Source of the DNA: a virus
Taxonomy: Duplodnaviria > Caudoviricetes
Length of the DNA stretch: 64,000 bases
Reading direction: 5' to 3' (one strand)
Virus record (IMG/VR): IMGVR_UViG_3300028048_000077
Span: 32,001 to 96,000 of that record
The position numbers and the translations under genes were made by a program. Below the pieces are notes generated by a model that saw only the letters and a list, made by a program, of their open reading frames with translations, ran no database searches and was not told where the DNA came from. Below are positions 6,165 to 60,334 of the stretch, one piece after another (the first letter of the stretch is position 1; every line of letters begins with the position of its first letter).

Positions 6165-6299
6165 AACTATTCCCTCTGCCCTAATTGGGCAGAGGGAGTT
6201 ATTGTGTTAAACTAAATAATTTTAGAGATACTATAAATATGAATAGGGTATAGGTACCAACTATACCCTATTCAATCTCCTAGAAAGGAGGTGTCAAGA

Positions 6300-24350: not shown

Positions 24351-24455
24351 CTAAAGGTGTAGAAAGAATTCTACAATAATTTTAATTATAGTTTCTAATA
24401 AGATATCGGCCAATACTTTTATATACTTATTAGAACCTTTAGGTATTGAGGTCAT
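24351..24455 (-). CDS. small hydrophobic peptide B (34 aa), type I toxin-like
   Basis: Early motif 24514-24529, 5' hairpin, AGAAAGGAGA SD; MTSIPKGSNKYIKVLADILLETIIKIIVEFFLHL. Confidence 0.65.
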   Translation of the reverse strand: MTSIPKGSNKYIKVLADILLETIIKIIVEFFLHL

Positions 24456-24606
24456 TTAGATCATCTCCTTTCTGAGGGGATTGGGTAGGATATAGTTCCC
24501 AGCTATATTCTACTCATATTTATAGTATATAACTAAAAATAAATAAATTAACAAAAAAGAAAGGGATGCATTGTATTGCATTCCCAGAGGAATTTGGCAG
24601 CACCCA

Positions 24607-52897: not shown

Positions 52898-53290
52898 TTA
52901 CCACATGTAAGTATTAGGGCTTTCACCATTATCACGTACATCTACATGGCAACCCCAGTCATAAAGACCGATTCCATCGAAACCAATCTGCTCACAGTAC
53001 CATTTGAGCTGTTCTGGAGTATGGCAATATTCATAGTCTGGAGTCTGTACATCTGCTGCTGTTCCATCAACATGCTGAGAATTAGGTACACCACCTACTT
53101 CAGCATTATGAGCTGGGCAACGATATGCACAAGAAATCTCAAGTGGACCACCAATCATTTCACGAAGAGCTTCAAGCTTTTCGAGAAGAAGAGGACTTAC
53201 CTTATCTGCAGTTTCTGGACCACAATCACAATGACCCTGAGATGCACCATGGCACATCAATTCTTCGGCGGAAAAATGTTCACTAGGCAT
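52898..53290 (-). CDS. Peptidase M15 (D-Ala-D-Ala peptidase-fold) endolysin
   Basis: SCAYRCPAHNAEVGGVPNSQHVDGTAAD...HVDVR. Confidence 0.88.
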   Translation of the reverse strand: MPSEHFSAEELMCHGASQGHCDCGPETADKVSPLLLEKLEALREMIGGPLEISCAYRCPAHNAEVGGVPNSQHVDGTAADVQTPDYEYCHTPEQLKWYCEQIGFDGIGLYDWGCHVDVRDNGESPNTYMW

Positions 53291-53310
53291 TTTTAAAATC
53301 TCCTTTCAAT

Positions 53311-53685
53311 TTAAGCAAATGCTGGATGATGCTGAGCTTTCATCTTACTAATATGACTATTTATATTCGCCATATGGCGATGAGCATCATTATATTTTTC
53401 TCCTTCTGGTGTTTCAGAAGCTTTTAATCCCGTTCTTTTTCTACCATCATTTGTTCTTTGCAAAGCTTTTCTAGTTTTATCAAGTCTATCTTGAGCTCTT
53501 TGTTTCAATTTATCTACTACTTCTTTAGTAAATTGTTTGTAATTATGCTCTTCTTCGAGAGACTCAATATAATTTTCAAGAGCGGCAATATAACCAGCAG
53601 CATATGCATCCATCACATATTCCTGCTGAGCTTCATTGAGGCTATTCATAATAGCTGTCTCTTTTAATACTTCATCTAAAATCAT
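53311..53685 (-). CDS. putative internal head protein
   Basis: Acidic N-terminus with AALE/SLEE candidate protease sites, basic C-terminus. Confidence 0.45.
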   Translation of the reverse strand: MILDEVLKETAIMNSLNEAQQEYVMDAYAAGYIAALENYIESLEEEHNYKQFTKEVVDKLKQRAQDRLDKTRKALQRTNDGRKRTGLKASETPEGEKYNDAHRHMANINSHISKMKAQHHPAFA

Positions 53686-53696
53686 AATACTCCTCC

Positions 53697-54872
53697 TTAC
53701 TTATTTGCTGTATGTATGATTAGAGCAAAGTAAAACTTAATACTCTTTTTATAAGCATTTTTAGTAGCTAATCTCTTCTTACGAGCAGCATACCTAGTAG
53801 AATAAGTATCTAACCAACCTTCTACTATTTCATCTATCTTTAATAAATGTTTGTTGGCAGTATTAGGTTTTGGAGTAATAGTATATGTAAGGAACTGAAT
53901 ATCCGCTACTTCCTTAGTAGACTTAGGCTCAGCACAATATGTATAAATCATATTACGAACCACAATCTTAATATCTCCAATAGTATGTTTATCATTTATG
54001 ATAGACTCTAAGATTTGTTTTACTTCTTCTGCTCTTACTAATGAAGAAGACGCCATCTTACAATACTTATATTCTATGGTATTAGATTGAATCTTAGCCA
54101 TAGCTTTATCTATAAACTTTTCACACCGTAAAGAATCCGAATCTGCTAAATGGAAATCTTCAGGCATCTGATTTTCAGAATTGTATACTATATAATCTTT
54201 ATTCTCATATGCTTTATAGTATTCTTTAGCAATATTCTTGATAATAGATTTGATTCTATTATGAAGCTGTTGTACTAAGTATGCTATATCTTCATCTGAG
54301 AAAGATTTAAACATTCTTTCATAACTTTCAAGCCATTTATCAGAGATAGTCTTAACAGTAGCTATAACTGTTTTAGACTTCTTAAATTCAAATGACTGAG
54401 AAAGATTATTCATTACATATTCCATAATCTCTCTATATTTAGAAGGTTCTGCAACTGGGAACATTGCATAGTGAATAGATGGATAAAATTTACCACTGAA
54501 TGCTAAATACAAAGCTGCTAACTGAGCATCTTTAGTATTCTTTTTCATTATATAATACCTAATCAAACTCATGATTAGAATTGTAGGCTCATCCTTAGCA
54601 TATCTAGGATTAAAAGCTGCTATATTCCAATAATAAGTTTCAGATATAGCTTTCTTAACTTGTACTCTATCTATATCAACTGCAGAATGTAATTCATCTG
54701 CATCTATACTACCATATGCCATTCTATCATATGGGCCAGTATCGAATAATTGTTGGTTTCTTCTATCTACAAATTTAGAGATGCATTGTTTAAACTTAGC
54801 AGCTCTAGAGCTCATTTTCTTTTCTACTATTGGATATAGAATCTTAAGAATAGCAGTGGTATTATTTTTCAT
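53697..54872 (-). CDS. conserved hypothetical (likely virion) protein
   Basis: 391 aa; GACA-N6-TAA promoter at ~54886-54899. Confidence 0.65.
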   Translation of the reverse strand: MKNNTTAILKILYPIVEKKMSSRAAKFKQCISKFVDRRNQQLFDTGPYDRMAYGSIDADELHSAVDIDRVQVKKAISETYYWNIAAFNPRYAKDEPTILIMSLIRYYIMKKNTKDAQLAALYLAFSGKFYPSIHYAMFPVAEPSKYREIMEYVMNNLSQSFEFKKSKTVIATVKTISDKWLESYERMFKSFSDEDIAYLVQQLHNRIKSIIKNIAKEYYKAYENKDYIVYNSENQMPEDFHLADSDSLRCEKFIDKAMAKIQSNTIEYKYCKMASSSLVRAEEVKQILESIINDKHTIGDIKIVVRNMIYTYCAEPKSTKEVADIQFLTYTITPKPNTANKHLLKIDEIVEGWLDTYSTRYAARKKRLATKNAYKKSIKFYFALIIHTANK

Positions 54873-54946
54873 CTCTTATTCACCTCTTATAGCATTGTCC
54901 AAAAAAGCACATTTTAATCATATACTCTTAAAGAAAAAATTAAGCA

Positions 54947-55082
54947 TATACTATATATATGAAAAGGTACCCATTCCTTTTTGTGTTTTCCATTATTAAT
55001 TATGAAATTTAATTTCATAATTAAACTCCTTTCATTATAAAATATCCCATTGGGGAGGGGGTATATTATCCCCTTATTTTTT
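54947..55082 (+). ncRNA. candidate early sRNA 1 (anti-SD motif)
   Basis: Early motif 54947-54962; CTCCTTTCA at 55026; GGGG/CCCC terminator with U-tract; no SD-led sense ORF. Confidence 0.55.
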
Positions 55083-55114
55083 ATATAAATTGTAATATTC
55101 GGAAAATTTAAACA

Positions 55115-55226
55115 TATACTATATATGTGAATAAAAGGATTCACCTCCTTTCTGTTTGTTCTTCTCATCTCCTTTCAATTCACCCATATGGGGAGGGGGC
55201 CTCATCAGCCCCCTTATTTTTTTTTT
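55115..55226 (+). ncRNA. candidate early sRNA 2 mimicking the 16S rRNA 3' tail
   Basis: Early motif 55115-55130; GGATTCACCTCCTTTCT; second anti-SD TCATCTCCTTTC; same terminator family as sRNA 1. Confidence 0.6.
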
Positions 55227-55272
55227 CATAATAAATCCCTCTACCCAATTAGGGTAGAGGGATAATCTTATT

Positions 55273-55854
55273 TTATTTATCGTAGTTTTCAAGAGTAAGC
55301 TTAACCAGAGTACCATCAGCCTTGATTTCCTCTACAGGAACCTTATGCCAACAAAGCTTCTTGATATCTTCAAGATCAAGAACAATAGCTTTCTTTTCAC
55401 CAATAAATGGATAAGTAACATAAGAAACATTTATACCATTAGCATAAACATTTACTCTTTTCTTACCTGGCTGAACAGGTGGATATTTAGTTTCATCTTT
55501 ACCAGTTACTTCAGGAGTAGCGGAAACTTTTTTAGGCTCTTCCTTTTTAACTTCTGGTTTAGGTTCTTCTTTCTTAACTTCCTCTACAGGAGCTTTTGCT
55601 TCCTCTTTAGTAGCCTCAGCTTTTACTTCCTCTTTTTTAGGAGCTTCTGCCTTAACTTCCTCTTTAGGAGCCTCAGCTTTTACTTCTTCTTTAGGCACTT
55701 CTGCCTTAACTTCTTCTTTAACTTCATTTTTTTCCTTAGACATCAATTTTTCCTCCTTATCATAAATATCAATCAATCCTTCGAAGGCTGATATGATATC
55801 TATACAATCATTATTTTTTATATTATTATTTAGAATGAGTTTAAATTCATTCAT
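55273..55854 (-). CDS. protein with EVKAEAPKE tandem repeats and a small C-terminal domain
   Basis: About 6 repeats at ~55560-55730; likely start 55743 (AAGGAGG). Confidence 0.75.
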   Translation of the reverse strand: MNEFKLILNNNIKNNDCIDIISAFEGLIDIYDKEEKLMSKEKNEVKEEVKAEVPKEEVKAEAPKEEVKAEAPKKEEVKAEATKEEAKAPVEEVKKEEPKPEVKKEEPKKVSATPEVTGKDETKYPPVQPGKKRVNVYANGINVSYVTYPFIGEKKAIVLDLEDIKKLCWHKVPVEEIKADGTLVKLTLENYDK

Positions 55855-55859
55855 ATAAT

Positions 55860-56090
55860 TTAAATAATATCGTCATCATCATCTACTTCATCATAATATA
55901 CATCATCATCAGCAGATACAGTTTCTTCATCATCGTCATATAAAAGTATATCATCCATATCATCACATTCACCGAATGCGATATCTTCTTCAGCTTCTTT
56001 TTCTAGATCAATCTCTTGCTCGATAATAAATTCATCAGTTTCATCGAATACATCGTATTCAGTATCATCAGAAAGCAATGCTTCTAACAT
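55860..56090 (-). CDS. small highly acidic protein
   Basis: Start MLEALL after AAAGGAG; very D/E-rich. Confidence 0.65.
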   Translation of the reverse strand: MLEALLSDDTEYDVFDETDEFIIEQEIDLEKEAEEDIAFGECDDMDDILLYDDDEETVSADDDVYYDEVDDDDDII

Positions 56091-60259: not shown

Positions 60260-60334
60260 TTACCTCTCTCTTAACTCTATATTTTTAAAAGCCCTATTAA
60301 TGCAATCCTCCTTTCTCATATATATAGTATATGT

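Follow-up and report, generated by a model that had tools for sequence, protein, structure and literature searches.

Trans-encoded type I antitoxins such as IstR-1 (acting on tisB) and SprA1AS (acting on sprA1) recognize the start region of a distant mRNA through ∼20–30 nucleotides (nt) of imperfect complementarity. Short promoter-to-terminator RNAs, without known targets, have been seen in phiKZ-like phages; to our knowledge, translation control by phage small RNAs (sRNAs) has barely been explored in giant phages of Gram-positive hosts. The present analysis concerns a module of two tandem units, each predicted to encode one such RNA (sRNA1 and sRNA2), in a giant phage of the lytic type. The module lies in a spacer (54873–55272) separating two minus-strand genes, for a 391-amino acid (aa) PHROG_2921 protein and a 193-aa Lys/Glu-rich protein. 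The stretch analyzed (64,000 nt; hereafter, the window, to which positions refer unless given as genome positions) corresponds to bases 32001–96000 of a single virus contig (IMG/VR record IMGVR_UViG_3300028048_000077; 128,771 bp, 30% GC). We propose, with a probability of about one half, that both units are driven by a promoter of the phage and that the resulting non-coding RNAs block ribosome-binding sites by pairing.

Such a mode of action has precedents. The cia-dependent small RNAs (csRNAs; RF02379) of streptococci are encoded by several genes of ∼50–200 nt per genome and typically contain two stem-loops, the second of which is the terminator; their unpaired region, with an anti-Shine-Dalgarno (anti-SD) and an anti-AUG (CAU) sequence, was proposed to block translation initiation regions (PMC3091779). 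The multicopy RNAs LhrC1-5 of Listeria monocytogenes, induced via LisRK, use redundant CU-rich sites, short and of the UCCC type, to bind the ribosome-binding region of the target and stop its translation, binding that includes structural rearrangement of the sRNA (PMC4132741). In phages P1 and P7, the c4 antisense RNA anneals to a phage mRNA in the area of the ribosome-binding site, blocks its translation, and varies between related phages (PMC12197685). Giant phages, namely phage 201phi2-1, also make short intergenic sRNAs reaching from promoter to terminator, and no anti-SD function has been described for those of 201phi2-1 (PMC11512511).

The two units in the window follow one plan, in which the promoter is succeeded by a 5′ hairpin, an unpaired CUCCUUUCA, a small CCCAU-N-GGG hairpin, and an intrinsic-type terminator (GC-rich stem and T run) present on the plus strand only (Table 1); the promoter-to-terminator distance is ∼95–120 nt in each. 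On the DNA level, CCCAT(T/AT)GGGGAGGGGG precedes the plus-strand terminator in both units. In the predicted fold of sRNA1, the 5′ hairpin (54961–54982) is followed by a 13-bp AU hairpin (54996–55024), which is found only in this RNA, an unpaired segment (55025–55045), the small hairpin (55046–55054), and the terminator. In sRNA2, the 5′ hairpin (55129–55157), an unpaired segment (55158–55182), the small hairpin (55183–55192), and the terminator follow each other directly. The small hairpin is a 3-bp CCC/GGG stem in both RNAs. The region contains five terminator-like sites compared with 0.7 expected from shuffled sequences, and no sense open reading frame (ORF) led by a Shine-Dalgarno (SD) sequence was found in either unit. 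An initial annotation, made from the letters of the DNA alone, had described such ORF-less tandem units, and every string it quoted was found in its place. Both units, having their own promoter and terminator and no ORF, look as trans-acting antisense sRNA genes generally do.

Table 1. Positions of the features discussed (window positions unless marked as genome; free energies in kcal/mol).
Feature	Position	Strand	Remark
Two-unit module, 319 nt	54917–55235	+	Insertion/deletion polymorphism between strains
Promoter 1 core, TATACTATATATATGA	54947–54962	+	Directional motif common to ∼30 gene-proximal copies
Predicted sRNA1, ∼122 nt	54961–55082	+	Minimum free energy −29.9, z −2.7
Anti-start segment of sRNA1	55007–55034	+	Antisense to 138-aa early gene, genome 24403–24430
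Terminator, unit 1	55055–55082	+	Stem 55055–55075, T run 55077–55082
Promoter 2 core, TATACTATATATGTGA	55115–55130	+	Promoter and 5′ block recur in unit 3
Predicted sRNA2, ∼94–98 nt	55129–55226	+	Minimum free energy −26.1, z −2.7
Anti-SD 1, GGAUUCACCUCCUUUCU	55137–55153	+	16S rRNA 3′-tail look-alike; opening cost 6.4
Anti-SD 2, UCAUCUCCUUUCAAUUC	55165–55181	+	Unpaired, in sRNA2
Terminator, unit 2	55193–55226	+	8-bp GC stem 55193–55215, then T10
Unit 3, ORF-less	Genome 100595–100740 (∼68595–68740 in window numbering, outside the window); L116:95–242
34-aa ORF, MKLNFIINN...	54914–55018	−	GAAAGGAG, 7 nt, ATG; rejected as a gene
Hairpin CCCTCTACCC/GGGTAGAGGG, 12 bp	55235–55263	Both (scored)	3′ end of upstream minus-strand gene
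391-aa gene (PHROG_2921)	53697–54872	−	Neighbor of the module
M15 peptidase (endolysin-like) gene	52898–53290		SD at 53298–53311

Like the csRNAs, sRNA1 shows the succession of anti-SD, spacer, and CAU, and both RNAs present an unpaired CUCCUUUCA between the 5′ stem-loop and the terminator, a likeness of function and not of membership. Unlike in the csRNAs, the anti-AUG of sRNA1 is part of a hairpin arm instead of an open linker (on its 3′ side, the CAU is separated from the anti-SD by 7 nt in sRNA1 and adjoins it in sRNA2), and the units, being phage-borne and strain-specific, use a phage promoter, TATACTATA-N-ATRTGA, that is not CiaR-dependent. The csRNA covariance model (RF02379) scored 23.8 bits at best (54998–55079, plus strand; E = 1.1) and 18.8 bits for the second match, not reaching its threshold of 57; that of RsaE/RoxS (RF01820), Firmicute sRNAs with C-rich seeds, scored 15.2 bits against a threshold of 79, and an Rfam scan of both strands yielded nothing at any gathering score. 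With LhrC the module shares multiple sRNA copies aimed at ribosome-binding regions, but its seeds are full anti-SD sequences of 9–17 nt, its units are unlike each other, and no homology was found. Whereas c4 is processed from the operon of its own target and has a role in the immunity of temperate phages of Gram-negative hosts (PMC12197685), the units described here stand alone, with promoter and terminator, in a lytic-type giant phage and 62 kb from their best target. The likeness to csRNA, LhrC, and c4 is functional only; no test of family membership assigned the units to any of them.

The promoters of both units belong to an element, TATACTATANATRTGA, of which the 128.8-kb genome contains ∼30 copies; its core is preceded by a conserved AT-rich part and usually followed by (A/G)TAG. 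Clear copies sit 5′ of co-oriented, SD-led genes, except for three ORF-less units, and many of them are directly followed by a stable 5′ hairpin. Related phages in IMG/VR share the motif, with 31 copies in one complete genome of 290 kb and with 11 and 4 copies, respectively, in two fragments, and the reversed motif, used as a control, had no match in these phages carrying 4–31 copies. The motif, termed early in the initial annotation, is a genuine directional element. This label is a reasonable analogy and not a measurement: the early promoters of phage AR9, which were mapped experimentally, consist of a long conserved AT-rich element with the starting G six bases downstream, occur in ∼41 copies, and are transcribed by the polymerase injected with the virion (PMC5312081). 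An extended AT-rich element, a presumed G start a few bases downstream, and tens of copies are also what the present promoter has in common with the AR9/phiKZ type, but the consensus differs, being AAATATATATTAT-N6-G in AR9 and TATACTATA(T/A)ATATGA here (PMC5312081). Kinship is distant, with proteins of the phage, including those flanking the module, ∼27% identical to those of AR9-like giant phages (of Bacillus, Staphylococcus, Listeria, and Yersinia), and a match to the β′ subunit of RNA polymerase stayed below the Pfam cut-off. Because in AR9 the element is followed by N6 and the starting G, and because the 5′ hairpins begin right after, transcription would start at G54961 in unit 1 and at G55129 in unit 2. 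Both promoters in the spacer are directed along the plus strand, opposite to the flanking genes.

The orientation of the promoters, the plus-strand terminators, the mRNA-like 5′ hairpins, and the unpaired anti-SD segments support the notion that both units would give rise to non-coding RNAs of the plus strand. It is very unlikely that, instead, the minus strand is the functional one, its SD sequences serving a 34-aa peptide (maybe in a cis-encoded type I toxin–antitoxin pair with the plus-strand RNA) or stabilizing, in the manner of a STAB-SD, the leader of the 391-aa gene. In unit 1, GAAAGGAG is indeed followed, after 7 nt, by ATG and a 34-aa ORF with a partly hydrophobic C-terminus; a similar G-rich hairpin with SD, a 31-aa hydrophobic ORF, and an antisense terminator occurs on contig L096, and a promoter-proximal SD without start codon exists at 60308–60316. 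However, the spacer revealed no promoter on the minus strand, and the hairpin 55235–55263 lies upstream; the conserved promoter and 5′ hairpin, in reverse complement, make up the second half of the ORF; and in a 99%-identical strain an A inserted after 54994 breaks the frame. The ORF was, therefore, rejected as a gene. The minus strand of unit 2 has two SD strings, neither with a start codon at usable distance. The remaining differences in the 99%-identical strain, which were read from single low-depth contigs and are weak evidence, leave the RNA helices intact: A54965G results in a G-U pair, C54970T is located in a loop, and a C inserted after 55069 lengthens the 3′ arm of the terminator. An attenuator, in which the anti-SD would pair with GGGGAGGGGG instead of the terminator being formed, was dropped as a candidate because no plus-strand gene lies downstream.

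The anti-SD content of the module is far beyond chance. GGATTCACCTCCTTTCT is located at 55137–55153, CACCTCCTTTCT at 55142–55153, and TCATCTCCTTTC at 55165–55176; CTCCTTTCA occurs twice, at 55026–55034 and at 55169–55177. The octamer GAAAGGAG is present only 13 times in the genome (257 kb, both strands), eight of which are working SDs, and three lie antisense within 220 nt of the module. Out of the ∼30 promoters, those of the three ORF-less units alone are followed, within 130 nt, by CTCCT on the transcribed strand. Anti-SD 1 differs by one inserted base, as already stated by the initial annotation, from the canonical 3′ end of Bacillota 16S rRNA, which it matches at 16 of 17 positions; the comparison rests on the known Bacillota sequence. 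Bacillota are a likely host, since the SDs of the phage are strong and of the GGAGG type.

This resemblance, together with duplexes that equal those of the real 16S tail when the strongest SDs are the partners, might suggest that sRNA2 imitates the ribosomal 3′ end globally and thereby soaks up SD-containing host mRNAs or baits a factor or nuclease with specificity for the 16S tail. We consider this hardly credible: UCCUUU and the final U, which make up most of the 3′ half of GGAUUCACCUCCUUUCU, are paired in the 5′ hairpin; the additional GGAU with the inserted U belongs to a hairpin block shared with unit 3, which has no CCUCC; and an RNA of ∼100 nt is unable to out-titrate all SDs or ribosomes of a cell. 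General damping of host translation by the sRNAs is, on stoichiometric grounds, unlikely. Very doubtful as well is a composite in which sRNA2 would be an early 16S-tail decoy, keeping the mRNAs of the four membrane micropeptides off ribosomes for as long as its level is high or baiting a host factor or nuclease that binds the ribosomal anti-SD tail, and sRNA1 a separately evolved guide derived from a captured gene start, both being swappable with micropeptide cassettes at one hot spot.

Specific complementarity, missed by the initial annotation, was found between sRNA1 and the start of a 138-aa early gene 62 kb away. Within a 28-nt segment of sRNA1, the anti-SD CUCCUUUCA (55026–55034), a spacer, and the anti-AUG CAU (55016–55018) face the SD, the spacer, the AUG, and the first three codons of this gene. 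The match comprises 26 of the 28 positions (93%; BLAST E of 4.5e-6 for this genome), and the start-aligned identity of 27/32 ranks first among 22,155 start-region pairs, the next best reaching 24 and 23. The duplex amounts to −27.8 kcal/mol, compared with −11.9 kcal/mol for the 16S tail at the same site, with 8.6 kcal/mol being required to open the sRNA1 hairpin. Significant complementarity to a distant mRNA, as generally expected of a trans-acting antisense sRNA, is, thus, present in sRNA1, and the match makes the 138-aa gene a specific, newly found candidate target. In its promoter-driven operon, a 66-aa gene precedes it and the topoisomerase II gene follows; the 138-aa product has no Pfam family and only a weak PHROG match. 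The SD of the 138-aa gene is situated within the last codons of the upstream 66-aa ORF, whose stop codon is in the spacer (L115:1010–1030, genome ∼24410–24430); RNA pairing at this start would strike a translational-coupling junction.

For sRNA2, anti-SD 2 is an exact complement of 14 nt to the SD of the M15 peptidase gene, of 13 nt to the 138-aa gene, and of 12 nt to micropeptide cassette B; exact matches of at least 13 nt occur in 0.1% of random start-region pairs. Its duplexes with the M15 and 138-aa genes (−18.8 and −19.9 kcal/mol) are 6–8 kcal/mol stronger than those of the 16S tail (−12.8 and −11.9 kcal/mol). Targets were ranked by such short-segment duplexes and by exact-match statistics, whole-molecule duplexfold and cofold having given unrealistic long-range loops and a noisy order. 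The M15 gene also provides a hint of co-variation, a single case: AAUUGAAAGGAGAU precedes it in the module-bearing strain, and in a 91% relative with a micropeptide cassette at the module site the spacer before M15 is 3 nt shorter, so that 4 of the 14 pairs are lost.

The initial annotation had proposed that the units are either trans-acting antitoxins for the micropeptide family or general SD-occluding RNAs damping host translation early in infection. The 12-nt complements that it listed are exact (cassette A, 6282–6293; cassette B, 24461–24472), anti-SD 1 being complementary over 12 nt to cassettes A and D and over 11 nt to cassette C and a 233-aa gene. The four micropeptide cassettes have four of the five strongest SDs in the genome when scored against the canonical 16S tail, with which they form duplexes of −18.0 to −22.8 kcal/mol compared with −20.5 to −23.7 kcal/mol for sRNA2, and the complementarity stops at 12 nt (A, B, and D) or 11 nt (C) without extension. 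The matches are, thus, real but generic, because the cassettes pair equally well with the 16S tail and with sRNA2. The presence, in the same genome, of genes for hydrophobic micropeptides equipped with 5′ hairpins and strong SDs does recall type I toxin–antitoxin systems, but here the extended complementarity is to a 138-aa, soluble-looking protein, and pairing with the micropeptide mRNAs is that of a generic SD. Of the original interpretation, the plus-strand, non-coding part is supported, while the antitoxin function finds no specific support.

A second aspect absent from the initial annotation is that the module is a strain-specific insertion. In DNA contigs of two runs, 54916 is joined directly to 55236, skipping 319 nt. 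L119 and a P0006 contig (flanking proteins 65% and 84% identical) have a spacer of 74–92 nt with nothing but a hairpin of the 55235–55263 type, whereas the identical module is present on L118, an independent contig of 29 kb. On L002 (391-aa protein 97% identical; 60–260, locus on the minus strand), the site is occupied by a promoter with 5′ hairpin and SD that continues into the ORF of a hydrophobic peptide of 42 aa, MIHLISRYII..., and on L001 (391-aa protein 91% identical; 1–130), by a promoter and 5′-hairpin cassette within whose hairpin the contig ends, both cassettes being inserted at the same site and in the same plus orientation as the sRNA module. Two contigs of close relatives were compared by gene maps only. 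To judge from these contigs, the module is a recent, exchangeable, strain-specific accessory, and its site appears to be a hot spot for early-promoter cassettes, with sRNA or micropeptide genes as alternatives. A degenerate promoter relic at 54904–54926 suggests recombination between promoter copies.

These observations would also suit by-products of cassette shuffling: the promoters would have landed in the spacer by recombination, the anti-SD strings would be relics of captured gene starts, the RNAs would have no function in trans, and the terminators would merely stop antisense transcription into the neighboring gene. The absence of the module from relatives, the micropeptide cassette at the same site in other strains, the promoter relic, the resemblance of the unit 1 core to a copied gene start (SD, 7-nt spacer, ATG AAA), and the lack of a detectable selection signal all fit. 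We nevertheless consider this reading unlikely. Three perfect complements of the extended SD, all on the transcribed strand, are located in or next to unpaired segments of two differently built units; CUCCUUUCA recurs in an unrelated ORF-less unit of another phage (G004, see below); and the indels of the 99%-identical strain leave the RNA helices intact.

Action in cis must be considered as well. Plus-strand RNAs could pair with minus-strand read-through that crosses 55235–55263 toward the 391-aa gene, and the ensuing double-strand cleavage or transcriptional interference would hold this late-type gene down early. The spacer revealed no separate promoter for the 391-aa gene on the minus strand; in relatives, the gene directly follows the hairpin and must, therefore, be read through; any such read-through RNA would contain perfect complements of the sRNAs; and AR9 makes antisense transcripts from promoters of its own (PMC5312081). 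We still regard this as improbable, since it leaves the SD complements and the 28-nt copy of a distant gene start unexplained and since the same gene layout exists in strains without the module. Roles in cis and in trans are not mutually exclusive.

Units of the same kind occur elsewhere. Unit 3 is 95% identical to the promoter and 5′ block of sRNA2 over 59 nt (genome 100595–100653); its body differs, and its terminator is a strong one of 19 bp (z −4.9). As units 1 and 2 do, it converges on a minus-strand gene ending in a CCCTCTACCC hairpin. In the complete 290-kb IMG/VR relative G004, three or more units run from promoter to terminator with no credible ORF in between (L117:2036–2215; also on L030 and L018). 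The one containing CUCCUUUCA ends convergent to a 413-aa minus-strand gene, and no second-site target for it was found within the G004 genome. Searches for homologues with two patterns gave no match in IMG/VR. A looser pattern gave 62 matches in metagenome contigs; those in AT-rich DNA were G/C-tract elements plus SD located 5′ of CxxC metal-chaperone-type genes, and the others were GC-rich and due to chance. These CCCCTCCCC-N-TGGGG elements with SD before CxxC genes (L058, L066, L068, L103, and L108) look like metal-responsive repressor operators of unrelated bacteria. Reading the phage units as operators was rejected, the likeness having been forced by the search pattern.

Blockage of ribosome-binding sites by the two RNAs can be pictured as follows. 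The module would comprise two independent plus-strand transcription units using the AT-rich promoter of the phage, a class which, by analogy with AR9, would be read early by the injected virion RNA polymerase; each would stop at its own intrinsic terminator, resulting in sRNA1 of ∼122 nt and sRNA2 of ∼96 nt. Both RNAs are predicted to hold the CUCCUUUCA seed unpaired between the 5′ hairpin starting at +1 and the terminator, so that it could pair with the extended SD GAAAGGAG of a few phage mRNAs and prevent binding of the 30S subunit. sRNA1 would serve as an antisense RNA devoted to a single target, the start region of the 138-aa early gene. The reach of sRNA2 would be broader (eight SDs of the GAAAGGAG type): its unpaired seed would fit the 138-aa and M15 peptidase genes better than the 16S tail does, and its 16S-like seed would fit the four cassette SDs about as well as the ribosome. 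What the analysis shows is the anatomy of the units, the logic of the strands, the non-random anti-SD content, the specific complementarity, and the strain polymorphism; transcription, its timing, pairing in vivo, and repression are inferred.

Several points weigh against this proposal. No transcript of sRNA1 or sRNA2 was observed among assembled contigs of two rumen metatranscriptome runs compared with 54300–55900, a type of data that can show neither small RNAs nor strand; contigs at least 99% identical covered the flanking genes only, and the depth over 54948–55055 stemmed from contigs less than 95% alike (AT-rich or promoter look-alikes), which are uninformative on expression. The module, being strain-specific, offers no conservation or covariation, and its sole sequence variant differs at a rate similar to that of the flanking gene. 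Unit 3 has no canonical CCUCC despite having the promoter and 5′ block of sRNA2, and in the G004 unit, CUCCUUUCA is expected from the fold to be engaged in internal pairing. Part of anti-SD 1 is taken up by the weak 5′ hairpin of sRNA2. Whole-molecule cofolding does not rank the 138-aa gene first for sRNA1, because the anti-AUG part is locked in the 13-bp AU hairpin. Finally, there is no evident reason why an early RNA should repress an early gene of the same phage.

The locus is concrete enough to be tested: both sRNA genes have defined ends, the seed is specified, and eight phage mRNAs contain GAAAGGAG, one of which has a 28-nt antisense match. Among closely related strains, sRNA and micropeptide genes replace each other at a single site as cassettes with an early promoter, which may be a route by which such regulators arise and spread. 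Should the units be inert by-products, they still define the grammar of promoter, terminator, and 5′ hairpin in a group of uncultured rumen phages.

The phage contig, with an estimated completeness of 52%, comes from metagenomes of bovine gut and a bioreactor; among its gene products are a GroEL-like chaperonin and a primase, and a search of the window for tRNA and tmRNA genes found none. The hairpin 55235–55263 is a backup to the plus-strand terminators and ancestral content of the spacer; it is kept in L001, L002, and L119, and the same hairpin type precedes many promoters. It belongs to a family, CCCTCTACC-N-GGTAGAGGG, with weak T tails at the ends of many genes and often just 5′ of the next promoter (e.g., those at 2869, 24784, and 47193), which looks like the standard terminator or processing signal of the phage.

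On the unrelated contig L096 (23% GC; 1440–1570), one strand has the G-rich double hairpin, SD, and 31-aa hydrophobic ORF, and the other a terminator just past the SD, a layout like that of a cis-encoded type I toxin–antitoxin system. In the window, the transcript from the minus-strand promoter at 60331 begins with GAGAAAGGAGG, a perfect SD at the very 5′ end (60308–60316) without a nearby start codon, the real start of the 535-aa gene being ∼55 nt beyond; this SD resembles a 5′ stabilizer of the STAB-SD type. Between another minus-strand promoter, at 2868, and the next SD-led gene lies a leader of ∼230 nt (2630–2868). This leader, which contains an internal hairpin and a helix formed over long range (GAATAAGAGAGAT ... 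ATCTCTCTTATTC), may have a regulatory role.

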